Counted from the stretch's first letter, positions 3,001-63,200 are shown. The stretch is DNA of 64,000 nucleotides from Paraspadella gotoi (GCA_051294375.1 JBJCIZ010000028.1:868437-932436); one strand, 5' to 3'. The notes: a model not told the origin generated them from the letters alone. Numbers and translations are program-made.

Positions 3001-5618
3001 GGTTCGCTACCCTCCCGACGAGCCTTACATCACCCTAGAGGATTCCCAGTGGTTTTACGAGGGCACCGTGCTTGCCTTAGGTGGGAACTATTATTCTCTT
3101 AGTACCTTTTAAAGTTTTAATATGTCAGTTTGTGTTTATCTATTTATTTATTTCCTTAGGGTGCACTGTAGCGGATCGCGGATTTCCGCCAGCGACGATC
3201 CGTCTCACTTTTCCAAACTCGCGCTCCGTCGAGACCAAGACGGACTCCGTCGTACACAATAGCTTTAGACTCAGTCCCGTCTACGACCAAGAGAAGGCGA
3301 GTGGCAGTTTAAATATAATGTATTGAAATCTTAAGCTACTTCTCTCTCTAAAATAACAATTCCAAAATGAAATGTTTAAAACTAAACGATTATTTCACTA
3401 TGTTAAAAGTCATTGAAAATTGTAATTTAAAATTCCCAAGAAAAGAGAATTAAAAAAAAAAAAAACCGAGAAATCGTCTAAACTGCTACAATATGCAAAT
3501 GAGATTGAGAGAATTATTTCTTTGCTACTTAAGCAATTAGTGTATCTCTTAATATTCCAGGTGATTTGCGAAGCCGTCTCCCCGGCGAAGGAATTGATTC
3601 GACGACAGGAGAAGACGCTCAAAGTCGCATTCGGTCCCGACGCCGTCGAGATATTCACGGGAGGTCGCGAGGTTTTGTTTGGAAAAGGTAAGTCAACTCA
3701 AAAGTGATTGTGTGCCGGTATATTCACACCACCATCGTTCAGCCAATCCCAATGGGCATCACAGGCAACCCGGCTGTTGCCATATTTGATTGTCTGAACA
3801 GATAGTGAAAGCCCCCATTTTTTATTAGCCGAATTTCATTATGAGATGTATTACGATAGAGGAAAATAGAAAACTCTTAACGATTATAGTATTACTATGA
3901 ATTTGGTACAACCAATATGAGAGAGATTAAATCTCATTTAAGAAATCAATCTCGTACAATGTTATCCTAATTTTCATCCGCAATTCTCCCTCTTCCAAAG
4001 TCGACGCGATCGCCGGCCAACTACTCTCGCTCAACTGCCTCCCTCGCGCCGTCAACCCCGAGGCGGAAATCCATTGGTCCGGCGCCGGAAGCGAGACGCG
4101 CATCGTTAACGAGACTCGCCTCTTGGTAACGCCCACTTGGCGCCAAAACGGCGCCGTCATTCGGTGTCTAGGAAGGAATCCGTATTACTACGGGGTAAGT
4201 CCCAATCTGGTTACCTTATCCTGTTTCTAAATATTCAAAACTAACATTATGCTATTACCTAAATATGCAACTGAAATTCAAATTCTGTATTAACTTTTTT
4301 CGTTCTTATTATTGAATATATTCCACACTTTTCAGATTCCTGACAAAGACGTCAAAGCCTTCGTGACGCTCAACGTTCTCCACAAGCCCGTCTGGAACGC
4401 GTCGAATACCGATCAGGTGAGAGAACCTTCGGAGATTAAGATCAAACGTTGCTTTTTAAATAACGTGGTTCTTATGTTTGTTCCCCCCCCTTTAATTTCT
4501 CCGTTTCAGTCCGTTGTCAAGTCCGCGGGACAGGAGGCGCTGTTAACTTGCGGCGTGACGGCGAATCCCGACGCAGATCTCAAATACTATTGGCAATTCG
4601 ACGGAAAACATCGGGGCATGACGAGAGAAATCAAAGTGAATCGATGGATTTTTGAGTATTTTTAAACGATAAACTCTGGGATTTTTTAAACTAGACTGAT
4701 AAACTCTTTGTTAAAAGCTTGCAATGCGAGCTGCGTGGTCACTTGGTCAGGGAAGAAGGCTTTAAACCCACAATAACCTGTTCATAGTCACTGACTAAAA
4801 TTATTCGATGAACAAGATATCTTGCCAACCTGACTATTAGTCAGGTTGGCAAGATGTCTTGTTCATCGAATAATTTTTATAGCAGTTGTACCAATTTTAA
4901 TAGTCATATGTCAACTGCTTCTCAGTCCAACTCTTTATTATTGCTTCTTGTGCCACTCTCACTTCATTCCTTCCTTCTCTTTCAACTCACCATCCCCTTA
5001 AAATCCCACCCCTCCCCTTAAAGGTCCGCGCCTCGGCCTCCACCTTCGGCGCCTACACCTGCGTCGCCACCAACTCAATCGGCTCCGCTTCCTTCTCCGT
5101 CTCTCTCATCGACGCCGATGTCGTCGCCGCGGCGGCTGCGGCGACGGAGCGGCTCGTCGTCGGCGTCGTCGTCGCCGCGCTGCTGCTGATCGTCGTCGTC
5201 GTCCTTCTCGTTTGTTGGTCTCGAAGGAGGAAGAGTTTGAGGGAGAAGGAAGAAGGTCGAGTTATTTTAACCCGTTAACCATACGATTATAGAATCCATT
5301 GAATCGTTGAATATTCATTTATTTACGATTACAGAGGCGTTNNNNNNNNNNCGAGCCATTCCCGAGATTCACGAAGACTTTTTCCGCTTCGGTCCGTCGT
5401 CCCCCGCCGCTGCGGCAGCCGCCGCGGCAGTCGCCGCCGCCGACGCGGCATCGCGGAACGACGACGCTTACGACGACGACACGCCGCCCAACGCGTCGAC
5501 GCCGAAGAAAGGAAGGGAAGACTGGATGGAAAGAAAAGATCTCTTGGTCGGAGGGGAGAAGGAAGAGGAAGAGGAAAACGCCAACAACCCCTTCACTCCC
5601 TCGCGGCAGAGATTGTGA
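1..5618 (+). CDS. Multi-Ig-domain type I transmembrane adhesion protein (nephrin/Kirrel/CADM-like), 5' partial
   Basis: Phase-consistent exons <1-175, 259-402, 480-692, 2928-3080, 3160-3296, 3561-3687, 4001-4194, 4336-4416, 4510-4635, 5024-5255, 5335-5618. Repeated Ig motifs (GHFKCEV; VSLACSVDAFPRPSIAW; LLTCGVTANP..YYWQF; FGAYTCVATNSIG), then TM helix LVVGVVVAALLLIVVVVLLVCW followed by SRRRK. N-gap in the last exon. Confidence 0.85.
728..2513. mobile_element. Non-autonomous long-TIR (foldback-like) DNA element with telomere-like CCCTAA core, in Ig-gene intron
   Basis: ~728-1215 is an imperfect inverted repeat of ~1950-2513 (gtttcttgtgccaa / ttggcacaagaaac; aaatagaactgtctaagggat / atcccttagagagttctattt). 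Termini are TA|GAGGTCCC ... GGGAGCTC|TA. The interior has ccctaaccctaa arrays and no transposase ORF. Confidence 0.8.
4797..4877. repeat. Near-perfect 40-bp-arm palindrome (hairpin) in intron
   Basis: aaaattattcgatgaacaagatatcttgccaacctgacta-t-tagtcaggttggcaagatgtcttgttcatcgaataatttt; one G:T mismatch, 1-nt loop. Confidence 0.95.
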
Positions 5619-7080: not shown

Positions 7081-12491
<5,411 letters not shown>

Positions 12492-13181: not shown

Positions 13182-15134
13182 ATGGCTCTCAGGATCGGCC
13201 TTAAGGGACTGGTAAGTGATTGGTTATTGTTTCGTGGTATTGTTTACGTTGGATATTCCTTACGATGACGTCTTGATATTTTGACATTCTTCCAGACTCT
13301 GTCTCGGTCTGCATCCTCGGCCTTCCGTCGCCGCGGTTTCGCCGAGATGCCCTTGATCTTCGGCACGCCAAACGAGTGAGAGAAAGGAAGAGAGAAAGAC
13401 TGAATGAATGAACGAACGAACGAACGAATGAACGAACGAACGAATAAACGAACCAGACAAAGAAAGAAATAAATCAATTACGCAATAAAGAAAGAAATGA
13501 ATCAATTGCGCAATAAAGAAAGAAATGAATTAGACACTAAAGAAAAAAAATACAGAGAGAGAAAGAAGTCAATCAATCAATCAATCAATCAATCAATCCG
13601 TATCAGGGCTTTTTACGAAGACGTTGAGGTGAAGCAGATCGACGTCAACTCCTTCAGCGGGGCCTTCGGGATTCTGCCCAATCACGTGCCGACAATGGCG
13701 GCGCTGGCGCCAGGCATTGTGAGTCTATATCATCGGTTAAAGATGTTAAAGGTGTTTTGGAATTTAGATCCAATAAGTAGAATGGAGTATATCACTTTGA
13801 TACTGGATAAGATTCCCAGTTTTAGTCTGAACCGTACCTTTTTTAGTATTTTTTTCATCCCTAACTCAATTTCTGTCTGCCATTGTGTGCGGATTAAATT
13901 AAGTAAAGTAAGATTAGAAAGTAAACTTCGAAATCACGCATATTCGAAGATCAAATAAGAAACGCAAAGAAGGATCTTCGGTTGAGCGCATCTGCAATGA
14001 GATGGAGGCAAAGGGAAGGATGGAATGAAGGAAAGAAAGGAGTTGATTAAAATCGCCGAATTTATTTCGCACATCGGAGGAATTGATTAAAACTTAGCAT
14101 ACTGTGTAGTGGGTACTCGATCTGGCATGATGTCAGACCGTTTTTGCCAGTCAAAAAAATGAACTGGCATATAGCGTACAATCTGGCATAATTTTATCAT
14201 ATTCTTAATTTTAACAAAGATTAAGTATTATGGCGAAGTGGATAGCAAATGAAGGGATACAGGATTTACCAGCCAAAATATGGTAGAAATGGCCACTACA
14301 GAATTTCCTATCGACAGCATTGGAAAAAGTATGAAAAACTTACGGAGGCTTTGATGTCTTGTTACGTCAGATACTGATTATTAATTTTTATTATGGTTCA
14401 ACCAAATGTGAGATTTTTTTTCCTAAAAAGTTATAAAAATTGGTGAAGACATTTATATCGGGGAATGATGATGTCATGAGTAATATTTGCTTACGAATTT
14501 TCTAAAAATTGTTTTTATTATAAATTGAGTATCTTTCGAGCAATGCTCATTTAATGGATGAGCTTTACGCTAAAAAAACCGAAAAATAACTAAATAACCA
14601 AATTTATTTTCGAATACCTTAAGAGATATACCAGTCCAATAGAATTTCGATGTCGCAAGATTTATAAGTTTCCAAATCAACCTCCGAAAAGTTCCCGAAA
14701 CTATTAAAAATTTTGCGTAACTGCAACATGCAAATGAGTTTAAAATCCAAGAAATGCCTTATTTCCGAGTTAAAACCCTCTTTTTCCTTCTCACCAGGTG
14801 ACGGTCTACCAAGCGGACGGGAACAACGTCAAGTACTTCGTCTCCAGCGGAACCGTCTCCGTCCACGAAGACTCCTCCGTCCAACTCCTCGCCGAGGAAG
14901 CCTGTCTTCTCTCCGACATCGACGTGAGTAAAACGTTATTAATTAATTAATTATTAATTCCCTTTAATAATTAATTATTTATCTACTTACTTGGTCTTCC
15001 AGCCCTCGGCAGCCAAGGAGGCCCGGTCTCAGGCCGAATCCCAACAGAACAGCGGGAAGGACGACTTCGAAAAGGCAAAAGGGCGAATCGCCTTCGAGAC
15101 GGCCGACGCTATCGTCAAAGCGCTCGGGGCCTGA
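13182..15134 (+). CDS. ATP5F1D: Mitochondrial ATP synthase F1 delta subunit
   Basis: Exons 13182-13211, 13296-13375, 13607-13718, 14798-14923, 15003-15134. Arg-rich presequence MALRIGLKGLTLSRSASSAFRRRGFAE; VKQIDVNSFSGAFGILPNHVPT; KYFVSSGTVSVHEDSSVQLLAEEA. Confidence 0.96.
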
Positions 15135-15570: not shown

Positions 15571-18500
15571 ATGGAAAATCGGGAAACGTCGCGAACTCCT
15601 TTCGATCACCCTTCGCTGCAACCGCAGACGCAGCGACGAACCTCGCAGCCGGAACTCGCCAACCCGGCCGCGGCTGCCGCGGCGGCGACGGCGCGGGACG
15701 AGATCGAGGATTTGCTCGACTCTCTCCAACCGGAATCCCTGCGGCGGCGTCGAGAACGGACCGAGGACGACGCCGAATCGGATGTCGACGCCGGAAATCG
15801 ATCCTTCGCCTCGCCGAAAAACTCTTCGACCGAACGGCGCCGGGAATCGAGTCTCGACGAAGGACGTCACGTCGTCGGACGAGAATCTCGCGACGGACGA
15901 ACGCGGCATCGATCGGGCGACGGCGCTTCCAAATCCTCGCCGCCGTTGGAGGCGGCTGCGGGGGCGGGGCTGCTGCAGCGGGAAGTGGCCCTTCATCCGT
16001 CCGAAGGGAGGAGCTCGATTCCCAGGATAGCGTCCTTACCTCTTTCCAATCAGCATTGGGTGAGGCACTCTTGAGTCCTCGGTCGTTTCGTGATCAAAAA
16101 TTTTGTCTAAATCTCGCTTACAGATAAGTTTGAATATTGGAAGTAAATGATCGTTGACGAGCCGTCATTAGTCAAGAGGCAGAAGTAGCTTATGGTAGAT
16201 TAAAATCCAGTAACCGTTTTCAGCGGTCATTGAAGCCGAGCCCAGTGGCCACCTTGCAAAGTGAATTGGAGCTCTTAACCCGCCTGTCTCTAGGTTGGTG
16301 CTTCAGCCTGATCCGGAGCTAAGGGAACCGCTATCGACTATCGATTGAAATGCACAGGGAAATGATACTGAGATTGGGTTTAAAAAAAAAAATCCGAAGT
16401 GACATCTGCTTCCTCCTCGCTTTGCGCCAATTCCATTTCTCTCCTTCCCCCCCCCCTTACTCAGTTGGGTCCCAGCGTGCAAAACAGCGGGCATCACCGC
16501 CTCAACTCCACCACCGGCGCCGCCTCTCACTCGGGCGCCGCCGCCGCAGCCTCTTCTCAATCCCCCAACCCGTCCAGCCTTCCGTCGGTCCCGATCTCGG
16601 GTCAGGCCACCGGCCAATCGGGTCACGTTTGCTCGCAGCTGATGGCGCCGGCTGGAGGCGTCGGCGGCGTCGGCGGAATGGGAGACTCGGAAGCTCGAGG
16701 TTAATTTAGTTAATTTTTTTAGGGGTTTGTTTTTCGTGCTCCCTTTTTTTTTTAAATCGAACAATGACCACTAAAGTTCATATATTTTCCTTCAAACTTA
16801 TGGACTCGTATGTTAATTGAAGCGAAATTTATTTTTATAAGTTTCTCGGTTAATAAAATTTTTAGTGAGCCATTTTTTATCATTTGACCTACTATCAATT
16901 GGAAACATTGTGTATGATTTATTCTGGAATCAGAGAAATATATTTCTCAACTTTATTTCAGAACAAAAATAATTTTAATTAATTTAAACTTTAGCAGAGA
17001 TGGAAATATACAGTATGCAAATGAGATTAAGCCGCTCAATCGCTTGTTTTTAAAACTAAACATGAATTTCTGTGCCACAACCATATCCAAATAAGAAAAA
17101 AGGACTCAATTTCTCTCATAATCTCTAATTGCCTCTATATTCCCTCTTCCCTCAAGTCGGTCCCTCGCCCCACCCTCCGCCCCCACTCTCCCACGCCGCC
17201 TTTCCCGAGATCGGCGCGGGTTCCTCGGCCATCTCCAACGAGTCTGTCCTCAACGCCCGCATCGCATCTCTCTTCGATCGACCCGAACTTGCCGACGTCA
17301 CTCTCATTGTTGGGGGGCAAAGGTGGTCGGATGGAGGGGGGGAGGTGGTGGGGGTGTGTTTGTTAATTGGTTTTTTTTTTTATACAGAGAGTTATTTAGT
17401 TTTGTTGTAACTGGGGAACGAGATCGGCTCATTTGTAGTCCTACGTGAAGCGTGAGGACAAGCCGTAAACCGTCTTGGGGTCGTGGAAAACCCTTAAGCC
17501 TGCTTCAAAGCCCTGGACACGTTCCATAGCTGCAAGAGGGGGTTAAAGAAGTTGCAGATAACACTCTTCAGCCCACTTAGCGCCTTATTTACACTTTATT
17601 TGATAATTTTTTTTTTTTTCTGAAAGAAAACAGACCAAACTAATAATTGCGGGAATGGTTGCAAAAAGATCCTATGTCAACAATAAACGTCAACAAAAAA
17701 GTAAAAGTAAAAATAGATCAGGGGAAACTCCGTCCACTTGAGACGGCAACTTAAACACGGGACTTCGGGAAGCAAGCATGTCCCCATTCTCGCGCTGAAG
17801 GCAGACAGAAAGTCTCTCAAAGTGCTTTGACGTTTTGCCAATGTCTAAGCCTGCATTCGTTGCTTGGAGTTTGGCGAAGTCTTTTAGGTTTGAGAGAGCA
17901 TCCAGATCCCACGCCCCGAAGGTAGTGACGACCAATGGGATGAAGCCCACGTCGGCCGGGTTGTGCAAGAGGGCTCAAGAGGAGTATATTGGAAAATTTC
18001 TGTATGAAGCCGAATTTTCTTTCTTGAAAAAAGATCGCGTACAGTTGTGGCAGTTTGCATTTAGATGCAGTAGTGCCAGTTTGCTTTCGTGGTATTCAAA
18101 GTCTCTCTTAACCTTTTCACCCTATCTATCTCCCCATATTACTTCACTCCTTCAGATTCGAGGCGCACCGTCTCATCCTCGCCGCGGGCAGCCCCGTCTT
18201 TAGAGTTATGCTCCTCAGCTCCGCTTGGCAAGATTCGCGCCAGCGGGAGATTGAACTCGAGGAGCGGAAGGAGTGCGTACCCGTCTTCGCTCTCTTTTTG
18301 AGATACTTTTACACTGGTGAGAGAGAGAGAGATTAATCGTTTTACAATTCTTTAATTTTTATCGCGTCGATCTTAAAAAAAAACGATTTAACAATCGGAC
18401 GATATATCATAATAACAACGACTAGCGCTTGTTAACTATTCATTATTAAAAGTAATCTTTTAATTGGTACCATGATGGAAAAAAATGTCGCGGTTTTGCT

Positions 18501-21500
18501 ATTTTTTGGCATCAATAAATTTTGGCCTCTTGTGATTCATATGAGCTGTATCTTATTTATGTACGACAAAAAATACAAGAGTTCTATGCAAAAGAAAATG
18601 AGTTGTCCAAACCGTGACAATTTTTTTTCCATCATGGTAGGCTACATTTAGAAGTGTATTTAAACGGAAAATTTTCACCCCAATATCCACTCCACCCCAT
18701 CGCGATCTTCAGGCCGCATTGAGCTGACGACGGACTCGGCGATCCCCGTCCTCTTCCTCGCCGACAAGTACGCCGTGGAGGATCTCCGCGACGGCGTCGT
18801 CGACTTCATGGTGGCCAACATCGCCCAACAGTCCGACACCAACAGGACCATTTCTTGGTTTGTACCGTCTTCGGGCATTGTTTAGTGTTTACATAAGTTT
18901 ACCCAATCTATACGCTCGACATTGGATCGATCCGCAACAGCCTTAAACCGTCTTGAGGGCCTGGAAAACCCTCAAGTCTGGTTTCAAGTCCGGGACTCGT
19001 TATATGGCTGCTAGAAGTTGCGGGGAGCACTTGGCGCCTTTTCCAGACTACCCCCTTTTCTTGGAGATGGATCGATATGGTCTTTTAGGGGCGAGGGGGA
19101 AGCGTTTTCTTCTTTCCTTCATTCCAAAATAAAAATATTTCAAAAGTAATAATTCGCTTCCAAAGAAAGTTTTGGGTTGTAAGCTAGCATTGCGTCGCAA
19201 ATTGTCATTCACTCGGATTGAGGTAACAAGTTCGTACTAGAATTATGAGCTTTTAAGCTTCTAAAACAGTAATTTTTTCCGATTTGTTTTCAATTGTTTT
19301 AACGTTTTTTTCTGTTTATTTTGGTGTTAGCTAATGTTTTAAAAAATATTTGTATGGGTCTCGTTGCCGCCGCGGGTCGCCTTTCTTCATTTTCAGACTT
19401 GAGTTTCCCTTCACCTTCATTTCCCGTCGCGCGACTCGAGACTTTCTCCTCGACTTTCGCGTCGACTCCGAATGACAAAAGTTCGTTCTCGATTGTCGAA
19501 AGATAAGCATGAAGAACGTCGACGTCGAAATTGCAATATGTAAATTGAATTTAAATTCCGCCGCAGATGAATTTCATCGGAAGTTTTTTGTTATTTTGTA
19601 ATTTTGTTGTCCCATGTTGGGTCCGATGCTTCTCAGTTCTCACTCATCTATTTTATCAATTTAATCATTCCGGTTTATTTTAATATTACATTCCTAGTTT
19701 GTGTTTTCTGACATCGTTATTTTAGTTTTACCTTCTACGTCAGCTTATATTAAATAACAATTTAACGGCGAGAACGTCTTGGATGAATTTTAACTGATTG
19801 CGTTAATTTTACTTTTAAGTACTTTTACTATGTACTTTTAAGTAACTAGTTTAATTCTGATAAATTTTCATCAAATAGGTTACATTTAACATAGGAGCTA
19901 AAAATTGACCCTTTAACACTTATACTTCAGGCTTGTGATGTCGCGTCAAGCTTTTAAGCTTGTAAATTATTGATTGTTCAAAATGTCTGCAACATTATTA
20001 TTCGAATCCTTTTTTTTTTCTTGATCCCTTTTTCGTCCTTGTGTTTCTTCAAGGTCTTGTTTACCTTTTTTTTCAATTACTTTTTTTTATTCATTTTCTT
20101 CGCCATTAATTGTCTTGAAATAAATCTTAAAACCGAAATCGATTCGTTTTGAAAAGCGATAAAAGTGTCTCGCTTTATCTAAGTCTCAGAAGCGAAAACT
20201 GCGACATGCAAATTTGAAAATAGTTTATTTAACGAGGAAATTCATAATTCTCATATCGGTCCACCTCGCCGCGAAATGCCCCTTTTGATCGCGGTAGTCG
20301 ATAGATCCTTATCGTGGCGAGGTGGACCGATATAGAATTAATATTCCATAAAGGAATTAAAAAATTCCTCGAAGCTTCTTTTCTTCCTTTTTCTGTTACA
20401 CTTTTGAATCTTTAATGAGAAATACCTTTTGAGTTATGAGTTGAAATGTTACGGCTTCTATGATAATCTAACAATTTCCTAATCCCAGGTACCAGTACGC
20501 GAAAACCTGCGGACACTCCGAGCTCAAGAACCGGTGCTGCGAGTTCATCGTGTGGAACATGCGGGTGGTGATCAAGTCGCCCGATTGGATCAACGTCGAT
20601 CTGGAAAATCTCGTCGAGTTTCTCGACTACTCGGACATGGTCATCACGGACGAGTACACCCTCTTGAAGGTAAGTTGTGGGGAGCAGGGGTGGGGGAAGA
20701 AATGGATCAGGTAAGGATTTTTCACTATACGGTATTCACTGCTATAGCAGATACACACATACAGCAGATACACACACACATTTATCATCTCATTAAAATC
20801 GTCCAGGCACTCGAAATCTGGGTCCGCACCAACTCTGTCGACGAAGGCTACGACGACGACGCCCCGCCCTCCGCATCCGACGACCCCTCTCCCCCTTCCT
20901 CTTCCTCTTCCGCTTCTTCTCCCCGCCCCTCCTCTCCTCCTCGTCGCCCACCTTCCTCTTCCCCCGCTCCCCTCGCCGCGCCGCCTCCGCCTCGCCGCTG
21001 CCGTCGGCCCGCGCGCTGCTCGACCGCGTCCTGCCGCACGTGCGGTTTCCGATGATCAAACCGGAGCAGCTGGCGCTGTTGGAGGAGGACTCCTTCGTGA
21101 GGAAGTACGCCGCTTGTTTCGACGCCTTCATGGTCAACGCGTACAAGTACCACGCCGTGCCCAAGGAGCACAGGTTGGGTTTTTTGCGGAGTTTGATTTG
21201 TTTGATGGGTGATTTGAAGATCCTTTGGTCATCGATGATCAGCGATAATTTGTTGTGATTTTTATAAAGGCTAAAGCGATGCTATAAGAAGTAGAAGTAT
21301 TTATTACAAAGATCAATAAACAAATAAACGCTTGTATTTGTAATTAATTCTTATCTTTCCTCACTTTTCTCATCCATGTCCCCTTTTCCGCATTTTCTCC
21401 CCCTTGAAGACGCGGCGACGCCTTTCTATTCGGCAACAGCTGCACACAGTTCCGCAACTACACCAACCGCAACATCTCCATCCACATGCAGTTCGACAAC

Positions 21501-22359: not shown

Positions 22360-22682
22360 AGCCCGCAATTACGATGACCATTGGTCAATGGTCATTGACC
22401 AAGTCTCAATTTACAATTTGACGATTGCAACGACGAAGTTCATTTGACGGTTCCAGTCCATGAAATGAACGAAATCAACAAATTTAGTGCTAACTCAACC
22501 TCGACCTCGACACGATCGTATGCAAATGAAATTGAAGATACTGAAGTCGTCATTGAATCCAGAGTCCATCTCTTATAATTCTCACGTCGATCATATCTCC
22601 CTGTTGAAAATCCTGGTCTCGCTCCACTCAACCGACTCTCAAGATTGTGGATGGGAGATGAAGGGAGTGTCGGGAGTGACTC

Positions 22683-23884: not shown

Positions 23885-25641
23885 ATGGGATCGAAGGCGT
23901 CCATCCTCCTCCGCGACGAAGAGATCGAGGAGATTCGTCTGGAGACGGGATTCTCCGCCAATCAGATCCACCGCCTCTACAGCCGATTCACGGCCCTCGA
24001 CAAGACGGGCTCGGGCACGCTCAGTCGGGAAGGTCAGGCTTCGGCCCAGAAGTTCTACCCCAGAAGTTCTGGGGCCTTTTTCTTTTCCCCGCTAATGCGG
24101 GATATTTTTTCTCAGAATTGATAATTAGCAAAGCGTTATATCGTTTTGCCTTTTTATTTAAAGTTATTCGTCAATGTATTTTATGTCTGAATCTGCCTAC
24201 TAAGTCTGTCAACAACTTTTATGCAGTGATGAATTTTACCGAAACCACCCCCCCCAACAGATTTTATCCGGATCCCGGAGTTGGTGATCAACCCGTTGGG
24301 CGACAGGATCGTCCACGCGTTCTTCCGCGACTGCTCCAACGACCTCGGCGACGATCGCATTAATTTTAGACAGGTACGAATCTTTTTCTGTGATTTTTGT
24401 AAAAGGATTTAAATGTACGTAGTTTAACGGATTTCGATCGTCTTCTAATTCTACGTTCTTTTGTTCAAGATAAAGGTTTGGTTGAGAGAATAAATTTTTG
24501 AATACATTTTGGTTTAGTAGTAGTAATAATTTAGTTTTACTTTATTTGATTCACCTTAAATACAAACGTCTTTGAAGACTTTATAGATGATTTTAAAAGA
24601 ATTGTTATCGCTCTGAAATCAACCGCTGGGTATTTGACTGTGAGAGAGTCTTTGATAAAGCTCTGTCCAAAGTTGGGGGCAAGATAGCCTTGTTTATAAA
24701 TGAACTCTAATGGAATAATCTTCATATTGATTTGTACCAATTCATATTAATTATATATTTAACATCACATAAATTACTTCTTTATGCAAATAAGATTAAA
24801 GCGCCTTTCCTCCCTTTTTTAAACTCAGTTCGTCCGTACTCTGGCCCGGTTCCGCCCCATCTCTAATCGCGATCTCTCGAAGAACACCCAGCTGAACTCG
24901 CGCGAGGAGAAGCTCCGCTTCGCCTTCAAGATGTACGACATCAACGACGACGACAAGATTCACCACAACGAGATCCTCGACGTTCTCCACATGATGGTCG
25001 GCTCCAACATTAGCGAGGAGCAACTCATCGGGATCGCCAATCGCACCCTCGAGGAAGCTGATCGCGACAGGTGGGGCGTCGCGAAGCCAAAATTGGGGGG
25101 GGAGAGGCTGGAGTACTATGGGAATGAATATTGAATAAACAAGAATCTTGATTCTTTATTAAAAACTTGCAGGTATGGTGGACTAAAATCCACCAACCGT
25201 TCATCAGCGGCCATTGGTGCCGGAGGCAAGTCATTCGCCTCCCAACCCAAAGGTCCGGGGTTCTAGCCGGTGGTCGTCTGGCAGTTAAGAGGGACGGGGC
25301 GCTTAACCCGCCTGTAACATGGTGTTACAGCCTGATCCGAAGCTCAGGGACTGCTTATATTGAACGGTTCTGTCATTAACACTTATCAATAATTACTGTC
25401 TCTTCACAGGGTCCAGCTATGCTATTATCTTGTAAGTGTGATGGAGGCCTTAAACCATTGCCTGTCCAAAGTTAGGGGCAACATCGCTTATTATTAATGA
25501 ATGGATAATTTTATATTGGTCGTACCAATTTCATATGAGATATTACTTTTCCAGGGACAATTACATCACGTTTGATGAATTTTGCAAAGCATTGGAGAAC
25601 ACGGACGTCGAACAAACAATGAGCATCCGGTTCCTCATTGA
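23885..25641 (+). CDS. CHP1: Calcineurin B homologous protein 1 (myristoylated EF-hand protein)
   Basis: Exons 23885-24032, 24261-24373, 24829-25070, 25555-~25641. MGSKASILLRDEEIEEIR..GFSANQIHRLYSRF; IPELVINPLGDRIVHAFF; NSREEKLRFAFKMYD; DVEQTMSIRFL. The clean stop (FLN*) is seen only in the duplicate exon 29000-29087. Confidence 0.95.
25410..25512 (+). repeat. Dispersed repeat family C with aatgaatg-type tail
   Basis: gctatg.tattatcttg.aag..gaggcctta...ctgtccaaagtt.ggggcaa...aatgaatggataa; also at 24663-24725, and in reverse at 36605-36960. Confidence 0.7.
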
Positions 25642-31200: not shown

Positions 31201-31640
31201 TAAAAAAGGGTCGTTTTGTTAACTAACTCGCTTAAAACTAATCTCTTACGTGTTTTTATTCCGTGCCATAACTTTACTAGTCGAATTTCGTTTTGATAAA
31301 AATCTAAAATGATTTCGCAAATAGAATAACCTCGATGTTAGAATCACTATAATCTTGTATAACACCACTAATGCCTAAACCTCGATTTGGAATCAACCAG
31401 AAAAAAATAAAATATGAGCTAACTTGTAAGTCTCTTTTTACCCCCGTAGTGTTTCCAAGTCTTCTCCTAAACGACTTCAGATTTCATTTTTTTGGTTAAT
31501 GGAAAAAAAACAAACAAAAAAACAAAAATTATATCTCCGTACGCTATTATTGTTACGTTTTCTTTCATCACGAATACCTATACCCCGTCAAGTAAAAATA
31601 AAGCGCTCTCGTTTCCAGATCCAATAAACATTTATTAAAA
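28242..31640 (+). repeat. Gap-bounded near-identical duplicates of CHP1 intron/last exon/3' region (probably uncollapsed haplotype or reads)
   Basis: 28885-31640 copies 25441-28170; 28242-28469 and 28480-28873 copy ~24495-24730. Differences are mostly 1-bp indels, and each piece abuts an N-run. Confidence 0.85.
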
Positions 31641-31708
31641 AAAAAAAAAAAAAAAACTATGATATTATTCGTCCTTCAAAAAAAGACGAATCCTCGCAGA
31701 CGACGACG

Positions 31709-45800: not shown

Positions 45801-48800
45801 GGGAAATCGGGAATCACACGAGAGGTGATTATGGAAATTTTAGAGTTTAATCTCATTTGCATATCGTAGTGTATGAATTGAATTTCGATAGATTGTTAAT
45901 CTCATGTTCGCCGATTATTGATGTTGTTCCATAACTTAATACTTAATAGTTAATAGTACTTAATAGTTCAAAGCCGCGTTATCTCAGGCCAAGAATGAAC
46001 GAGAGCGAAAATTTATAACAGATTTATAAGCTGGAAAAACCTTGCCAAAGAAAACATCGTAGAGAAAGAGACGCGTTATTAAAACGGACGAAAACTTTCG
46101 GACGAGCTCTGAAATGTAATCGTTAATAAAAACATTTAATGATTTATCGCTACCAATCCATTCCCATTTCTCAGCGCCCCGCCTCCTACTTCAACTACTT
46201 GAGCAAAGACATCGACGTCGGACTTGAAAAGAACAAACTTCGCAAAACCAGCAGCCGCGAGTTGCTCTTCGAATCCGACGCCGCCTCCGACGAAAACTAC
46301 GTCCGCCGAACCGTCGAAGAAACTCGTAAGAGTCTCGAAGATCTCACCGGCGCCGCTTCGGGCGCCGCCTCCGCCGCGGCGACGGCCGCGTCGTCTTCGT
46401 CGACGCCGTCGACTCCGGACTGGAAGACCAAATCGTACGACGACCTCCTGCGGCAGAAGCAGCAGCAGCAAGAGCAGCAGCGGCATCGGCGAAGATCGAA
46501 GCGAGAGGGCGAGAAGTCGTCGCCATCGTCGTCGTCGTTTCGGCGGGAGGCGCCGCTTCCTCCAGGATGGACGAAGGAGTTCGATTCGAAGGCGGAGAGA
46601 GACGTCTTCTTGTTTCGTCACGAGGTTTGAGGGGAAGATGATGATGATGATGATGATAAATGATGATGTTGAATGTTGTATAGTGTTGTGACAAGTTAAT
46701 GTTGTAGTAATGTTAAGTGTTGGTCCTATAGAATTTTAAATACTAATGTTGTAGCGATTTTAAATGTTAATGTATTCTTAAAGTTTGACTTTGAAATTCA
46801 TAATTTACATAATTTTAACATTTTTGTTTGTTTTATTATTGTTACTTTCTGTACAATGTACATCCAAAAAGGAGACCGTCCACCGATGGATGTGCGAACG
46901 CGACGCTTCGGGTCGACCCTACTACTTCTCGGCCGACGGTTCCGTCTCTCGATGGCGCCTCCCGTCGAACCCGTCGGCCGAGGACGAGTCTCGCTCGGCC
47001 GACAAATCGGCGGACGTCGGGAGCGAAGACGAGCGGAGTCACGGGTCCAGCTGCTCTTTGGACAACGACCTCGGAGCCGACGTCTCCCTCTGCTCATCCG
47101 GCGACGGCGTCGACGATAACCGGCGTCGTCGACGCGACTCTTCCGGCGACAACGTCAGTCGCGACGAGGTTTCGCCGCTGGAGCATCTCAAGCCGGAAGT
47201 GGGTCTCTTGGGGGGATGGTGTTTGGCCGGGGGAGTAGGGTGAGGTTTTTTAAAATAATATTTATATTATTTATTAGACCTGTATTTGTAAATGTGAATT
47301 TTTCAAATTCAATATGTTCAAGACGGGGAAGCATTTTCTGATATCTCTTAAGTCTTAGCTTTATAGTTTCGTTTAAATTTTTCGTTTAATGTTAAGGCTA
47401 ATTTTAAACTTCCAAGCAAACGGTTGGGGCAATAACCTAAAAGTTTTGATAAAATGAGCGATTACGCTTTTGATCCCATCTTATCGAGTTACTTTTTATA
47501 TTATATTTATTGTAAGAAAGTAGAATCTCATACATGATGATTTTTAGTAATTTCTGCAATATGCAAATGTCATTAAATACCGTTTCTCGATTTCTGCATA
47601 GGATTATTTATTTTATTAACTAAACTCATTTTATTTGTTTATTTATGAAAAAGAGTAGGCTTCCAAATCAAGTTCCTTTCAATCTCAAACTCCTCAGGTA
47701 CTGAAAAAGGGTTGGCTCAACTACACCAAATACCAGTACGGTCAGAAGCGGCTCAACAAGAACTGGACGAAAGCCTTCGTGCTTCTCATCGGCAACTGGT
47801 TGACCTTCTACTCCAGCGAGAAGAAGACAAAGGTTAGCGGTCGTCGTTGAGATTTGTTAAGATTTGTTAAGTCAGAATGATAGTCTATTTAGTCAAAACC
47901 GTGTCATTATGTTATGTCATAATGTTATTTTTGTTGCGAATATTTTAGCAACGATCATGTATTTCGCTCACATGCAGAAAATTATTTTTAGTTTTACCAT
48001 TTTTCAATTTTTGACTTTAATATTTGATTGTAAGCAGATCGTTTGTCTAGTAGCTATTGTAGACGCGTTTAAGTTAATTCTACCAAATTTTGGATAGAAC
48101 TCCCCTGAAAATAATACTGCAATTTATCGCCTTCAGGCGCAGAAGAACCATCCCTTTGGCAAACCCGAGTTTCGCGTCGACCTCAACGGCGGCAGCATCG
48201 ACGACGGCGCCGAGAAAACGAAGAAGAAAAACGTCATTCTCATCACCGCCTTCACGCCTGGTAAGAAGTACGGCGCTTGTTCAGTCAGGGGCCTGGTATG
48301 TGCGGCGCCTTTGTAGGTGTGTACCGTTTTCACGAAGAAATAACTACAACTGATCAACGCCCCCCCCCACCATTTTCATCTCAGGGTCGGAGATTCAACT
48401 CCTGTTGCAGTCGGATCAGGCGGCGGTTATTGAAGACTGGAAGGCCGATCTTCAAACAACCGTCACCGTCTGTCAAGAAGAGCAGGTTTGTGGAGATGAA
48501 TAAATATTAAATAAACAAATAAATTGCGGCGATTATTATTCTTCTCTCTCCCAGGATTCTTTGGGTCGTCTGGCTCCTCGCTCCCCGTCTTCCCTCACCC
48601 CCTCACCCAGTGGCCAAAAGTCTTTCTTGGGCGGATCCGAAGATTCGCTTGGTGAGTTCACAATTCGTCGGTGAATGAATTAATATCGTCTCTCAGCAAC
48701 GCGACCTTTAATTGAAAATTTTCTTCGTAGTCGATGATTGATTATTAATAACTTGTTTATATCGTTGACTTATATGTATTTAATCACGAATTGATTGTGG

Positions 48801-50299
48801 CGGAGTAATTCAATGAGATTGAGCCTCATAAGCTCATTTTCATATCGTAGTATTTACAATAATTCCAGATACGTTTTGATTCGGCTTTCTTAGAAGGTTT
48901 ATTTAACAATTTTACCTACGCTTTTCATAAGTTTCAATAATGATTTAATTTTCCAAATAATGTTTATATATTTCATATTAGTATTGTAGCTTGACAAATT
49001 ACTTTTGTTTCCTCATCCCACTCAGCCTCGGCCGAAACGCCCACCTCTCGTCGTTCCTTCTTCTCTCGGTCTTGGCTCGAAAACTGGTTCCGTCGTCGCC
49101 CCTCCTTCGACGTCGTCAAGGAGAAAGGTGGATTGGGTGGGGGGGGGCTTTTTATTGGAGTTTAAGGGGAGAGCGGGATGTGGTATTGACTTGAAATGTA
49201 AATAGGAAATAAGTAATGGAAATGAAAAAGAAAAATAAAACGCAAAGCGAAAGAGTTTATATTTTTGTTTTGCGATGCTCAGTCTTAAATTACTAACTTG
49301 AAATAGAAAAAAAAAACAACCTTATTGACATAATTACGAAGATATCCTCGTCATTTCTATTTATTTTATTTTATTTAATCATTATTTCTTCAGGTTTGAT
49401 CAAATCTCGACTCGTATTCGGCGCGAGCATCGAGGAATTGGCGGAGAGAGAGAAGAACTCTGTCCCGGTGAGAGCGTCGTCGTCGTTGTTGTTGTTGTTT
49501 GCCGGAGTTGTTGTGGAACTTATTGAATGCACGTCGAGTCGTCTATACCGAACGGCCTCTTTCCGTTTACTGCCTCTTAAAGACTGGCGACAATAATTTC
49601 GCGTGATCTGTATAAAAGAAAATGGGTTTAATATTAATTAAGGTAAAAAATAAACATTTAAATTAATTAGGATTTGAACTAATGCTTCATTAAAAAAGTT
49701 ACAAAGGGCAGTTTAAGTGATCCCTCGATAAATCAAACATTGTCATCTCTTATATGAAATTAGTAATTTTATTCTTGTTTCCTCTTAACGACGCAGTCTT
49801 TCGTCAGCCGCTGCATCGCGGCTCTGGAGCGGCGCGGCGCCCTCGGCGTCGACGGCGTCTTCCGCATCAACGGAAACAACGCCGAGATCCACAAACTCCG
49901 CTTCCTCGTGGACGAAGGCGACGCCGCCTACGATCTGCTCGACCCCAAGTGGGACGTCCACACGCTCACAGGATCTCTCAAGCTCTTTTTCAGGTCGGTG
50001 GAGGGGAATCAAGGGATAAATTGATCTATTGTTGTATCGTATTATTGATTTTTGTTCATTTTGTTTTGTTAATTATGATTATTCTCTCTCTCCCCTCTCA
50101 CTCTCTCTCTCCCCCTCCCCCACAGGGAATTGCAAAAGCCTCTGATCCCCTGGGAGTGTTTCGAGTCAGCGCTGGAGGTTCTTCGTCGTCAAGGCGACTC
50201 CGACCGCAAAAGTCAAAAGCTTTGAAATCCATTTTCGAAAAGTAAGAGTCTCTTGATTTGGTTTCCTCGCCGTAAGTCTTCTAACGGTTTCGCTCTCTC

Positions 50300-50361
<62 letters not shown>

Positions 50362-50404: not shown

Positions 50405-50438
<34 letters not shown>

Positions 50439-52690: not shown

Positions 52691-53874
<1,184 letters not shown>

Positions 53875-54528: not shown

Positions 54529-57241
54529 ATGTCGTCGTCGTCGTCTCCCTCGTCGTCGTCGTCTTTCTCATCGTCGTCTCCGTCGCCGATGACGTCTTCG
54601 TTCTCGACCTTGTCCCAGTTGCAATTCAATGCCTCCTCCGTCTTCGACTACGATCTTCATTATCGCGGTAAATTCCTTGTTTTTTTAATCTCATTTGCAT
54701 GTTGCAGTAAAAAGTTTATTTTTTTTTGTCAAACATCGCTAGTCTTTTTTTTCTTCCGCGGAGATTCCTAGGAATGTATTTTTTTGGAAAACTTGAATCG
54801 GACGTAGATTGTTGCTTGAGATGATCGGGTTTCGCTTTTCATATTCGTGCGATTAATTGTTTTTATTGATTAATATTGGGACATAAGATTTCACTATACA
54901 TAATCATTGGTAAAGAGTAATCAGAAAATGTCCCTGGCGTTTCTCTGACAGTTAACTGTTAATTCTTTTCTTGGTATTAAAAATAATTAACAAAACCCAC
55001 TAATTTATGATACAACCTCAACAATGTTCTTCATTATCAGAGGAAGCTGGGTAGTTATTATAGTTATATTTTATAGTTATATTATCGCCGCAATATCTTA
55101 TAATCTTATTTGTATGTCGCAGTTAATGTATTATTTTATTTTTTTCTGTGGAAATTCTGAGGAATTGATTGAAAACTTGAATCGATTGTAGTTTGAGTTG
55201 ATCGGGTTTGGCTTTCCATATTAGTGCAATTAATTAGGGTTTTATCAATTAATGTCGGGACTTAAGATTTCACTATTCGTATTCGTAATCATTAAATTCG
55301 TAGTCCCGAGCTACTATTATATATTTCGCAGAATCTTGGAAGTAAATAATGTAAATGTTTGGATCTCTCTCTCTCTCACCATTGTCTCAGAAGTTCGTTC
55401 GTCGGCGCCGGAGGTAAGGGCCTCCTTTCTAACGAACTCACCCGACTTGGTCGTCCTGGGCGAGGGGCGTCGACGCACTGTTTCGACGGGGTTCGCTTCG
55501 CTGCGGACTTTGTCGGGAACGCTGCAGGTCGAGCTGGGGGGGGGGAAGGGGTCAATTTCGGGGTCGGGGAAGATCGATGGACGCATTATGTCACCCCCTT
55601 TTTTGTTGTTGTTATCACTCAAGACTCAATCGATCCGGCGTCCGGTCGTCATCGATTTCCGGCGAGACGCGAGTCGGCAAAATCGGAGACGAACACGCCC
55701 GCGCGTCGTCTGGTCGACCGAATCGAGGTTTTTCGTCATCGTGATGAAATCTTTTTTTATTGTGGAGGAATTTATGAAGGATGTTCTCTCTCTCCCTCTC
55801 GCCCTAAAGACTCTCCAATCTCCCGACGACCTGGTCGGCGCATCGGGAGCTCCTCTTTCGAACTCCTCGTCAACGGTTCATCTTCGCCGACAACGCGGAG
55901 GCGGAGAGGATTCGATGGGGCATCTTTCCTTTGGGAGACGACGACGTCGATTGGTAACGATAACATAAACAAACAAAAGAGCAACAAACAACACACGACC
56001 CATAAGAAACGCCAATCGAAGCGAACGACGGCAATAAACAACGATCAAACTTTAGGATCGTCTGCCTCCGTTCATCTGAGATTCATGGAGTTTATAAAAT
56101 TTCTCATAACCTTTTTATATTTGGTTTTCTTACTTTTACGTTTACTTTTATAGTATGTGCCTTCTGTGCCAAACAACACACGACAAAAAACAAAAAAAAC
56201 AATAATTAACACCATCAGCAGGAGACGTATCCAGCGGTATAGGGGTGTTCTTAGAGACTACTTAAAGTTCTCTCAAGAAGACAGAAATACTTTTTTCTCT
56301 ACTTTTATGTAAACTTGTGTAAACTTGTTTAAACTTTTAGGGGTACCTGGGAGATGACGGCTTCCTCCTCGGAGCCCGTCTGCTACGTGATTTGGATGGC
56401 GCCTCTCAACGTCACCTGTTGGCGCCTGATGAGTCGAGTTCCCGCGATCGCCGATGGGAAGTTTCCCTTCTTCTTCTCGCTGATTTGCATCAACGCCGTC
56501 GCGTTGGCGATGTGCGCGATGATGCAGCGAGAGAGGGCCTACTTGGGGATCGAGGTGGGCGAGAGAACTAGAGAGACTTTGGTCTTTGAATCCGAGTTCT
56601 CGTTTAGTTTTGAATGAACATTGTTGAGATAATTGGTTTGGAGATTATGGATTGCTGTGTAGCTTTTATTCGGTAAACGGGGGGGGAAATGTGATAAAAA
56701 GGGGGAAAGAATATTTGTGGATTAACGCCGAGTGGGCTGAAGACTATTGTGAAGAGTTCTATCTGTAACGGCTCCTGGGCCCGGAACAAGGTGGTTTTTC
56801 GGCCGTCCTCACGCTTGCCGCAGGGTAGGTTACCAATCGAATCGATTCCGGTACCTAGTGGTCATGAGCTGATTGTATTACTCCAATAGACTGAGTGAAC
56901 TCGGCGCAATGCCCGTCTACATATTATTCAATGGCGATAGTATACGGAACCCATTTCCTCTCCCTCCCTTTTTCCCGTTAACTTACCAGTTGTGGAAGCG
57001 CTACCTCTTTGCCGTCTACTTCGAGGATCACCATCTCACCGCCGTCGAGTCCCTCGTCTTCGCCGCCGCGGCGCGAAAGGCCTCGGCACTCCTCGGCGCA
57101 TCCGTCTCCGTTCGGTTGGCGGCGTCGTTGGCCGGGTTCTTCGCAATTTTGCTCTATCGATGCGTGACCGTCCGACAACGCGGAGTCTCCAGCGTCGTCT
57201 TCGATCTCGGGGATTGGTTCTACTTGGAGTTGACGTATTGA
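54529..57241 (+). CDS. Uncharacterised protein with C-terminal hydrophobic (probable TM) segments
   Basis: Phase-consistent model 54529-54667, 55391-55527, 55624-55727, 55810-55953, 56341-56554, 56990-57241, with exon-like composition. Hydrophobic FPFFFSLICINAVALAMCAMM and LAASLAGFFAILLY. No family recognised. Confidence 0.6.
54758..55292 (+). repeat. Imperfect ~140-bp direct repeat within one intron (54758-54908 vs 55150-55292)
   Basis: gaaaacttgaatcg..gatcgggttt.gcttt.catatt.gtgc.attaatt..gggac.taagatttcactat occurs in both. Confidence 0.8.
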
Positions 57242-60209: not shown

Positions 60210-63200
60210 ATGTTTGCCTCCTCGGGCTACTTTAAGAGCGTCCCATGCCCTTACTATGTCAGCGGCCTTTGTGAACGGCCTTATTGCCACTTTAAACACG
60301 CGCTTCCGGAAAAGCCAGTGCCTTACGCAAGGGCGGCTCCTGCCGCTCCGACGCCGTCGGACGCGCGGAAGGGATCAGGTGAGCACTGAGCAGTTTGGGA
60401 TTTCCTTGTCGAGTTGTTAAACCATTATAACAATTATCCCCTCATTCAATACATAAATAGCTTTTTATCTCCTGACTTTTGACAAACATGGTAGGGTTAT
60501 GGCCTGCATCCCTCTTACATCCTCTCTTATCACAGAAAGACCCTACCTTTTAATCAAGGCTCTCTCACAATCAGTCTACTTACAGTGTTACCCCCATGTT
60601 TCAGCCATTTTTTCTCCAAAAAATTTATTTGCCACAGGCTTATGTTAACCTATTTTATTCGGTATTTGGTATTCCTTCAAACTTATACATCTTTGAAATT
60701 CCTATTTCACCTCCCGCCCCCCCAGCGTCGCCTTCGTCCTCTTCATCAAGTAATCCCCCGTCGACGGGCAATTTGGCGACGATCTCCGCCTCCCTCGACG
60801 CCGTCCGCAAATCCCCGGCGCCGACGGGTCTCCCTCAGCTCCTCGATCTCTTCTCGCAGGTTTGCTGACGTCCGGATCGGAAAACTACGCCACGCCCACT
60901 GTATATCTATTAACCCGAACGTGCCACGCTCTAGTTTACCGAGGTCATCTCCGAGGTCAAGAACGCCGTGGTGCAGCAAACCGACCGGAAGGGATCGTCC
61001 ACCGACGTCGCCGACGAGGATGCGGGGACGGCTGCGACTTTGTCCGGCGTTTCCGGCGAAGCTCCCCCGACGGCGAAGACGAGCGAAGCGACGACGTCGA
61101 TGGCCAACGAGATTCCGTTCGGGATTCCAAAAGCCTCTTACAATCTGCAGCGGCCCGTCGTTGGTGAGAAGTTGTGAATGAAATTGCATTGACCAATTGA
61201 CTCAGTCTAGCAGAACGTGTACGTCCTCGTTGTCCCTCTGATCAGGACTCAGAGTATTTATTTACGTTTTAAGGTATAAACGTTGTCGAGCATTACTATC
61301 TTGCAAGAGATTTTTCCTATGTACGAGGATTATCGATTTTGATTATTGGCGTTTTCGTTTCTTTTAGTTAAGCCCAAGTGCAAGGTCAAGCTACCTCAAC
61401 ATTATCCCGCTTACAATCCGACGCCAAAGAGTATTTTGGTGAGTATTAAATTAAGAATTTATATACTGTCCTGCTTACAAGTTCCTTCATTAATGAAAGA
61501 TCATAAATTTCGTGAAATTAAAGATTAGTCGAAGGATAATGTACAGAGCTTTCGCCTTAATAACCTTATATTGATAACTGCAATATGCAAATGAGATCGT
61601 ATGCATTGACATACAATTTTAATTTTAATTACAACAGCGACAACAGCAGCATCAGAAACAGAGTGAAGCTCAGCATCATCCGCAGCAGCAGCAGCAGGAG
61701 CCTCCCGCCCCCAAAATCATCCCTCTTAACCCGGTGGAGGAAAAGGAGGGAAAAAGAGATCAAGAAAATGAGAGAGAGAAGGATGAAGAAGGAGAGAAAG
61801 AAGGAGAAGAAGAAGGAGAGAAAGAGGGAGGAGACGGGAAGGAGAATGTGGAGGAAGAAGCAAATGAAGGAGAAGTGGAGTCGGAAAAGAAGAAAGTGGA
61901 GAGAGAAGGAGAGGGGCTAGAGGAGGTGGAGCAGGAGGAAGAGGAGCAGAAGGAAAAGGAGAAGTCGGGCGTCGACCAAGTAATTGAGGAAGACGCAGAA
62001 TCGAAAGTCGCGGACGACGAGACCAACGACTTGGAGGAAGGCAACGACGTCGCCGACTCCGTCTCCGAAGACGTCGCCGAAACGACGGCTCCCTCGACGG
62101 CGCCGCCCGAAACCGGCGTCACCGGCGTCGATGGATCATCCCCAGTCGACGCCAACAAATATCTCTTGGCGACGACGACGCGTCCGAGTTCTTCCCTCGA
62201 ATACGATCCCGTCTGCAATTACGAGGCGGAGACCGACGCCGTCAGAAAGCGGAAGAGCAACGAGGGCGCGCCGCCCGAAAATGCGGCGTCGGAGACCGCG
62301 CCGGGGTCGGAGGGCTTGGCATCGTCGCCGGTTCGAGCGGAGAAGAAGAAAAAGTTTAACTTGAACCGCGCGGGGCCGTTTACTGGGAGGAGAGGAGGGA
62401 AGAAGGAGGCGGGGGAGGAGAATAAGGGGGATGGAGTGGGCGAGGGGATTTCGAAGACGTCGACGAGTTCTGAAGGAGAAGAACCCGTTAAATCTCAAAG
62501 AAGGAAGACTGAAAAATCGGAGAAGGCTGCGGCGGCGGCGGCGGCTGAAGCTGCGTCCGCTGCGAGAATCGACGTAAAGGTGGGAAAAGAATCTCGAAAG
62601 GAGAAAAAAGAGAATAAAAGTAAAGGAGCCAAAACGACGACGACGACGAAGACGACGAAGACGACGAAGACGAAGACGAAAGAGGAAAAACTTAAAACCA
62701 TCGACGACATTTCCGACGATTCGTTGGATGACGACGATGTTGGGGACGACGAAAAAGTTGAGGGAGTCGGTGCGACCGATTGCAAGAAGACTCGCCGTTC
62801 CTCCTCGGAGGAGGAGAGAGAGATCATTAAGAGAGAGATTGAAAAGGGGAGGGGTTCGTCGGAGGCGAAGGCGACGGTAGAGGCGAAGGCGAAGACGACG
62901 GCGGCGAAGGCGAAGAAGGACAAGTTAACGATGGCCGACATCTCGTCGGATTCTCTGTCCGAGGATGAGGACGAAAAACCGACGAAAATTGAAAAGAGGA
63001 AAGATGAAGCGAAGAAGAAGGAAGAGAAAAATGAGAATGGAAGAAGAGTTGACGAAAAGGAAAGAAAGAAAGAAGAGAAGAAAGGAAAAGAGAAGGAAGG
63101 AAAAGAGAAGGAAGGAAAAGAGAAGGAAGAAAAGGAGACAGTAAAACGGGACAATAAGCGTCATGAAAAGAACGACTCGCGAACCAAAGATCATAAGGAC

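Follow-up and report, generated by a model that had tools for sequence, protein, structure and literature searches.

The introns of a 64,000-nucleotide stretch of Paraspadella gotoi DNA (GCA_051294375.1, JBJCIZ010000028.1:868437-932436; henceforth the window) contain repeated copies of a 22-letter motif, ACTRCAATATGCAAATGAGATT, whose GAGATT end mostly faces the nearer exon, from either side of it. The window holds 12 genes, all on the + strand, in which we modelled 82 introns via reading-frame continuity; 20 of these introns, belonging to 10 genes, carry the motif (PLPBP and PITP are without it). A motif of about 22 bp in introns of 10 of the 12 genes had been claimed in an earlier, sequence-only reading, and the claim is borne out: 13 matches occur at up to three mismatches, compared with none in 100 shuffles. 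An exhaustive scan at up to six mismatches yielded 24 matches, about one of which is expected by chance: 23 are intronic (15 forward and 8 reverse), one lies in the 3' flank of the BTB gene (22512) and none is exonic. At up to three, four, five and six mismatches the intronic copies number 13, 15, 19 and 23, against 0, 0.03, 0.13 and 1.1 in block shuffles. The core octamer ATGCAAAT is exact in 16 of the 23 intronic copies, and the 16 octamers of the earlier list are all where, and on the strand, that list had them. Six of the eight octamer columns are invariant among strong copies and the other two stand at 14/15; outside introns, exact octamers occur at 22520 and, in an exon, at 56483. All strong copies are intronic (15/15, p 0.001-0.003), with none in the 12.6-16 kb of non-intronic non-coding DNA of the window, and none of the 27 introns shorter than 140 nt has the motif. 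The copies are distributed over the length of the genes, about one every 3 to 4 kb, and are not concentrated at promoters; no 5' bias is seen within genes (mean intron rank 0.47).

The orientation of the copies follows the exons. The GAGATT end points to the nearer exon in 10/10 copies with at most two mismatches, and in 12/13, 13/15, 16/19 and 20/23 copies at up to three, four, five and six mismatches (one-sided p 0.001, 0.002, 0.004, 0.002 and 0.0002, respectively). Likewise, strand depends on intron half (Fisher test, p 0.007, 0.0095 and 0.0017 at three, five and six mismatches), and 14 of the 15 forward copies avoid the donor half. The earlier claim that 16 of 16 copies face the nearest exon stands for the copies it listed; the exhaustive scan adds exceptions at 48830, 55102 and 19530. 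Two genes hold both orientations, and there the rule is kept by 6/7 copies (up to five mismatches), while 8 of the 10 motif-bearing genes have a single orientation. The copies also lie close to the exon that they face, 13/23 being within 60 nt of it (4.2 expected, p 2e-5), and for 22/23 the intron continues to the rear for at least 110 nt (15.2 expected, p 2e-4, for a cut-off chosen post hoc). Distances from copy to faced exon span -2 to 937 nt, and no periodic distance from copies to exon centres was demonstrable.

The DNA behind the copies has a composition of its own. Over 60 nt behind the motif the GC content is 0.28, compared with 0.36 in position-matched motif-free introns (p 0.0003), and the A-skew on the motif strand is +0.14 versus -0.02 in matched controls (p 0.005). 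Exons are GC- and CpG-rich (CpG observed/expected ratio, o/e, 1.36), with a median internal exon of 150 nt. The recurring unit is at least 110 nt of AT-rich, A-skewed intron, the 22-mer, a spacer of -2 to about 180 nt and a GC/CpG-rich exon, and it occurs on either side of exons. No second shared word, including any resembling the proximal sequence element (PSE), was found behind the window copies.

We tentatively propose, with a confidence that stops a little short of even, that the 22-mer is a POU-type site resembling the distal sequence element (DSE) of small nuclear RNA (snRNA) genes, and that it serves as a directional boundary in chromatin, with AT-rich intron on one side and an exon on the other. 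Class II POU proteins prefer ATATGCAAATKAG, and a factor of this type, together with a partner, likely binds the 22-mer. In the proposed mechanism, purifying selection would preserve the 22 letters, from which we infer that something binds the motif as double-stranded DNA. A POU protein would bind the core, as at the snRNA DSE, and partners would read the 5' ACTRCA and the 3' GAGAT. The bound factor, together with the A-tract, would keep a short part of the intron poor in nucleosomes and fix the nucleosome over the adjacent exon, an arrangement that would favour read-through and the definition of exons in housekeeping genes that are unmethylated and closely packed. The sites may first have arrived via inverted-repeat transposons. 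Two ideas of the sequence-only reading are consistent with this proposal: a mark of exon or nucleosome boundaries would fit the AT-rich, A-skewed tract behind the motif, and a class II POU-like site acting as double-stranded DNA gains indirect support from the occurrence of both orientations, from the sharp edges of conservation and from a copy placed like a DSE upstream of a U6 gene (see below). A wider version of the proposal, which we find doubtful, is that a transposon-borne, DSE-type 22-bp site became a genome-wide directional exon-boundary element, present in introns thousands or even tens of thousands of times. Facing exons from both sides, the sites would then be read by a complex with a POU protein or a domesticated transposase and would fix exon nucleosomes, a DNA-level way of doing what elsewhere falls to gene-body methylation and the associated chromatin marks.

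Conservation of the motif and its possible transposon origin

Among 14 strong copies (a local duplicate was excluded), pairwise identity is 0.83 within the 22 letters and 0.29-0.34 in the 20 letters on each side, which equals the composition background. Neutral decay fitted to the mismatch counts predicts a flank identity of about 0.81. Because the copies are 83% alike inside and at background outside, the motif looks kept by selection, as judged by this comparison, and not like a decaying transposon end. The earlier statement that sequence beyond the motif is unshared is thus confirmed, whereas its remark that several copies abut TTAA does not extend to the copies in general, the columns past the motif being at background.

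The motif also occurs outside the window. When metagenome contigs were scanned, 20 loci came up, of which the 16 that look eukaryotic were retained; the other four (L004, L008, L014 and L015) represent a single coding gene of bacterial type, about 91% identical among them, and were set aside as matching by chance. In the remaining loci 15/19 matches are a single variant of the 32 that the pattern allows, and these matches are therefore not chance; a scan of viral contigs gave 0 motif matches. In locus L013 the motif lies at -254..-233 from the start of a U6 snRNA, with its octamer at -248..-241 and a TATA at -31, and no PSE was identified there; the gene belongs to a 707-nt tandem unit (L013 1-1488) that also holds a tRNA-Arg(TCT) and a tRNA-like remnant, and the 5' stem of the U6 is unusual. 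Loci L001 and L012 carry reverse copies 46 and 57 nt past a GTAAGT donor, facing a predicted exon. Three elements of about 500 nt, resembling miniature inverted-repeat transposable elements (MITEs), have the motif in all six arms (L005 385-901 and 968-1460, L017 554-1082), about 65-95 nt from their ends, with the GAGATT end outward and an A-rich stretch behind. The MITE-like elements in L005, L017 and L003 (798-910) have arms of 140-165 nt, are packed side by side and in some cases end in CACTAG...CTAGTG, which we take to be CACTA-like. Locus L020 (119-1168) has an outer-arm dynein frame of protist type that contains one in-frame TAA and, among named relatives, is closest to those of stramenopiles; the frame is broken off at a repeat, also present in L002, in which the 22-mer is exact. 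The published spliced-leader start of chaetognaths had one isolated 9-letter match across the 20 loci, too little to inform.

A major question is whether the direction of the copies matters today or is inherited. In the main alternative to a chromatin boundary, MITEs with an outward motif in both arms entered short ancestral introns, which placed a reverse copy by the donor and a forward copy by the acceptor; the element then decayed and single sites were kept as enhancer-type POU sites, with a direction that has no function of its own. We consider this account unlikely, though a serious one. The arms of L005 and L017 have the geometry that it starts from, introns of 65-97 nt exist (20/82) while introns below 140 nt are free of the motif (0/27), and mammalian SBS2 sites may likewise come from MLT1J elements (PMC3627581, accessible text). 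Both copies are found together in 0/20 introns, however, where independent survival would leave about 2, an estimate that makes the deficit not decisive, and the window flanks have no likeness to the L005/L017 arms (p 0.92 and 0.59). Moreover, the AT-rich tract behind the motif persists despite saturated flanks, and strong copies are absent from the non-intronic non-coding DNA. Directional boundaries and inherited geometry can share an origin; they differ in whether direction matters today.

A stronger transposon account, also raised by the sequence-only reading, holds that the copies are eroded terminal inverted repeats (TIRs) of an intron-generating transposon, that is, neutral relics of the introners that created these introns. 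It is largely refuted, and we give it next to no credence. Outward orientation near intron ends, a median internal exon of 150 nt and the mirror-symmetric composition of intron ends speak for it; in the 62 introns of at least 100 nt, G is 0.37 and C 0.12 after the donor, and C is 0.43 and G 0.05 before the acceptor. On test, however, these mirror-image ends gave no specific pairing. None of the 20 motif-bearing introns holds paired orientations, the best opposite-strand match having at least 7 mismatches, and the own-pair TIR score is no higher than that of shuffled pairs (p 0.21 for the 20 motif introns and 0.65 for the 62 introns). Direct repeats at the junctions, as expected of target-site duplications, are not longer (2.3 vs 2.5 nt), and all-against-all BLAST of the 82 introns (1e-5) gave 11 matches, which are internal repeats or the motif itself, none spanning both ends. 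Introners are recognized by introns that are mutually similar up to both splice boundaries (PMC9860276, accessible text), and the window introns differ from them in lacking end-to-end similarity, TIRs and target-site duplications. Neutral decay is likewise rejected, and relatives with 65-70% protein identity also have ALKBH6 intron 1. The subterminal, outward-pointing motif in the MITE-like arms of L005 and L017 keeps a weaker transposon version alive; no MITE-like element with the motif in its arms was found in the window.

Splicing, promoter and RNA alternatives

Three further accounts, like introner relics, fit worse than a chromatin boundary or inherited geometry. In the first, which we regard as improbable, sites arise either way round and selection against cryptic splice sites sorts their orientations. 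A reverse copy reads ...TTTGCATATTGYAG on the transcript, with a pyrimidine-rich YAG end, a forward copy runs into the pyrimidine tract, and the AG of 4/8 reverse copies is no more than 65 nt from the donor, close to the minimum length of an intron. The other four reverse copies, however, lie at distances from the donor that would allow their use, and the avoidance of the donor half by 14/15 forward copies is left unexplained.

In the second, the sites are internal or antisense promoter elements, from each of which transcription starts at a low level in the direction of the exon. An AT-rich tract and an activator site beside CpG-rich DNA resemble a promoter, and at snRNA genes the site works as an activator, yet no strong copy lies at gene starts or between genes, no common PSE-like word follows behind the copies and no RNA family is found in the window; when snRNA or other Pol III genes were sought near the copies, nothing in the window reached the gathering score of an Rfam family. 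We hold this to be highly improbable. In the third, to which we assign only the faintest probability, the motif is read in RNA, as a splicing enhancer, as a branch-point helper or through pairing of sense and antisense copies in the pre-mRNA. Copies do lie near splice sites, and two genes have both orientations. On the other side, both orientations occur across the window (15 forward, 8 reverse), distances lack a narrow range and, since 8/10 genes have a single orientation, there is no pairing partner in them; folding z-scores were -0.46 to +0.90 for the four stretches folded, and the motif of L013 lies in an untranscribed region upstream of U6.

Several observations weigh against a directional chromatin boundary. 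Three of the 23 intronic copies break the orientation rule, 48830 being a tie, 55102 a duplicate and 19530 weak. Orientation is clustered along the window (7 runs, 11.7 expected, p 0.026), so that the copies are not fully independent coin flips. Acceptors faced by forward copies are stronger than other long-intron acceptors (11.0 vs 7.3 bits, 12 vs 43 sites, p 0.0015), and thus the motif does not rescue weak sites; part of this excess may be due to errors in the models of motif-free introns. The same outward geometry is seen in the MITE-like elements of L005 and L017, for which no selection on geometry need be invoked. Outside support exists for 3/20 motif-bearing introns, the remainder being reading-frame models. 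Among the metagenome loci, the U6 case is one tandem unit (two copies, 99% identical), in which the motif turns its ACTRC end rather than its GAGATT end to the U6 promoter. A donor pattern lies in front of the motif at 3/19 metagenome sites and behind it at one, a difference not significant alone, and A-skew behind the motif is mixed in these loci. To our knowledge POU proteins are animal-specific, and the dynein locus L020 would tell against a purely animal, POU-only account unless that contig is chimeric. Finally, the orientation of Reb1 sites was without effect in a yeast study (bioRxiv 2020.11.03.366690, accessible text).

Individual copies, genes and intron models

The first copy, at 2818..2839 (+), has six mismatches and may be chance; it lies in a 2235-nt intron, with the acceptor 88 nt on. 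A segment at about 1260-1900, inside this 2235-nt intron, is CpG-depleted (o/e 0.16-0.19) and has CCCTAA-like repeats, while the exons are CpG-rich, which suggests that methylation is confined to inserted elements. In the Ig-domain gene, 3485..3506 (+, one mismatch) lies in intron 5 (GC-AG, 3297-3560) with the acceptor 54 nt on and a frame that is open across the junctions, and the weak copy at 4257..4278 (+, five mismatches) lies near the centre of intron 7, 57 nt before the acceptor. GC-AG introns number two among the 82 (3297 and 7206), and both are required for open Ig-domain and NT5C2-like frames. The NT5C2-like gene has a weak copy, missing from the earlier list, at 10694..10715 (+, five mismatches; intron 9, acceptor 18 nt on) and another copy at 11104..11125 (+, two mismatches; intron 10, donor 210 nt back and acceptor 171 nt on). 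In the gene for ATP synthase delta, 14720..14741 (+, two mismatches) lies 56 nt before the acceptor of the 1079-nt intron 3.

The BTB gene holds two copies in intron 2, at 17007..17028 (+, three mismatches) and at 17077..17098 (+, six mismatches, may be chance), with the acceptor 128 and 58 nt on. In its intron 5, the weak exception at 19530..19551 (+, five mismatches) is 937 nt from the exon it faces and 672 nt from the one to its rear, and a weak copy with an exact octamer at 20198..20219 (+, six mismatches) has the acceptor 269 nt on. A CpG-rich patch with an acceptor-like end, at 19370-19570, adjoins the exception and may hide an unmodelled exon or promoter. The sole non-intronic match, 22512..22533 (+, five mismatches), is weak and lies about 150 nt past the BTB stop codon. 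In the CHP1-like gene, 24776..24797 (+, four mismatches) precedes by 31 nt the acceptor of intron 2 (24374-24828), a junction supported by the relative P0136.

The copy without mismatches, 32621..32642 (-), lies in an intron of the coiled-coil gene (32577-33029), 44 nt past the donor. It is followed by a weak copy with an exact octamer at 34451..34472 (-, six mismatches; intron 34335-34735, donor 116 nt back), by forward copies at 35403..35424 (+, one mismatch; intron 35288-35443, acceptor 19 nt on) and 35842..35863 (+, two mismatches; intron 35602-35887, acceptor 24 nt on) and by 39061..39082 (-, two mismatches; intron 38960-39266, donor 101 nt back). RhoGAP has copies at 45849..45870 (-, one mismatch; intron 2, donor 24 nt back), at 47553..47574 (+, three mismatches; intron 4, acceptor 123 nt on) and at 48830..48851 (-, three mismatches; intron 8), the last being the tie (178 vs 174 nt) and new to the list. 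The copy at 53027..53048 (-) overlaps the donor of ALKBH6 intron 1 (53029-53195): its 5' 17 letters are perfect and the splice donor stands in place of the GAGATT end. In the gene that we call gene X, 54687..54708 (-, one mismatch) lies in intron 1, 19 nt past the donor, and a contig of sequencing run X1 skips this GT..AG intron (54668-55390); the exception at 55102..55123 (-, four mismatches) belongs to a local duplication of the sequence behind 54687 (75% over 163 nt). The last copy, 61577..61598 (+, one mismatch), is in REXO1-like intron 4 with the acceptor 39 nt on.

The gene models are backed by a Pfam match for 6/10 gene pieces tested. Nine genes have models without an internal frame break, and BTB, RhoGAP and PLPBP have one late break each, in or near low-complexity sequence and 3' of motif-bearing introns. 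Spliced contigs of run X1 were aligned on one 4.5-kb stretch only, and no run is recorded as RNA. They give six GT..AG junctions, one of them motif-bearing, with ALKBH6 intron 1 outside the coverage; one spliced contig supports gene X (five junctions) together with ALKBH6 intron 2. For ALKBH6 intron 1, the genomic fragments of the relatives that have it in common break at the same codon. The CHP1-like model is supported by the full-length relative P0136, a gap-free match at 96% identity. The closest named CHP1 proteins are spiralian, and a tree made by a quick method (92 rows, proteins of at least 260 aa excluded) has a 100%-supported clade of relatives; from the ESM Atlas came no more than the family. 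Gene X (54529-57241) comprises six exons encoding 329 aa with a serine-rich start and a hydrophobic end, and the two exons tested had no Pfam match; a minus-strand reading of this 54.5-57.2 kb gene was ruled out by the junctions of the run X1 contigs. Coding gaps are below 2 kb in 10/11 cases, and one run X1 contig passes unspliced from ALKBH6 into gene X, which is operon-like, though the contig does not show a single transcript.

A 2.8-kb block occurs twice at 98% identity with many small indels (25441-28178 and 28885-31647), its two copies lying on either side of short N runs (28217, 28470 and 28875); the doubling is likely an assembly artefact. In the first copy of the block there is a frame slip at the CHP1 C-terminus, where P0136 ends in FLN. 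Two or three small intronic repeat families (50-113 nt, 73-83%), none with the motif, are hosted by BTB introns 1, 3 and 5, NT5C2 intron 1, CHP introns 2 and 3 and the coiled-coil intron 36506-37055. No branch-point word stood out in the introns.

Comparison with known sites

How chromatin mirrors exon-intron structure is an open question, for which GC content or splicing feedback are the usual answers. A long, specific DNA site facing exons from both sides would offer a direct handle that can be footprinted, deleted or inverted. Should the genome-wide version be true, it would constitute a sequence-encoded DNA mark of exon-intron structure that is independent of splice signals; even if the geometry is inherited, the motif would show clearly how transposon arms can supply host factor sites whose geometry persists. 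The core octamer is a known kind of site, and what would be new is the fixed 22-mer, its intronic density and its mirror-image relation to exons. A full-text literature search found no description of this combination, with PMC12460157 compared by text only; the figures of that paper may show the motif already. A term search of PMC12130899 gave nothing relevant.

One close comparison is the snRNA DSE, which normally lies at -250..-170, contains an Oct-1 octamer and acts through a positioned nucleosome, across which DSE-bound Oct-1 reaches SNAPc (PMC9652321 and PMC11346459, accessible text). The window motif shares the octamer core, and the same 22-mer is found at the DSE position of the U6 gene in L013. 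Unlike the DSE, which combines an Oct-1 octamer with a Staf/ZNF143 site, it is a fixed 22-mer without the ZNF143-type TTCCCA core, and its copies lie in introns of protein genes, densely and oriented to exons. Another long, directional and abundant site is that of CTCF, which phases nucleosomes; its sequence is unrelated, and no exon-facing rule is known for it.

The SBS2 site of THAP11 (Ronin)-HCF-1/ZNF143, ACTACANNTCCCA, has a similar 5' part, the AAACTACAAT of the probe matching the 5' end of several copies (PMC3627581, in the text accessible to us). Both have a 5' ACTACA extension beside the site of another factor and a possible transposon origin, mammalian SBS2 sites being candidates for derivation from MLT1J elements (same source). 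SBS2 is a promoter element, whereas in the intronic motif the octamer replaces the TCCCA core, so that ACTRCA is present and TCCCA absent. The 3' part of the motif, AAATGAGAT, matches 8/9 letters of the TAATGARAT element of Oct-1/HCF-1/VP16, which may be chance; in that element a POU site is extended by a 3' tail read by a cofactor (PMC3936734, accessible text). VP16, however, is a viral protein.

Yeast general regulatory factors such as Reb1 act with poly(dA:dT) as nucleosome barriers, and the motif resembles them in that a specific site adjoins both an A-tract with strand bias and a region that favours nucleosomes (bioRxiv 2020.11.03.366690, accessible text), and the window sites have the adjacent AT-rich, strand-biased A-tract of a nucleosome barrier; the yeast sites are located at promoters, whereas those of the window are intronic with an orientation tied to the exon. 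In the chaetognath Paraspadella gotoi itself, an unnamed motif is enriched in the open chromatin of operons (PMC12460157, Fig. 5i and Extended Data Fig. 7j); the accessible text describes it as unlike known factors and mentions no POU, octamer or exon orientation, and the accessible part of the peer-review file refers to enigmatic de novo motifs. That text reports de novo motifs in open chromatin and, insofar as it describes them, the same-strand gene clusters and unmethylated gene bodies of P. gotoi resemble what we see in the window, whose same-strand gene packing and CpG-rich gene bodies fit the description of chaetognaths given there.

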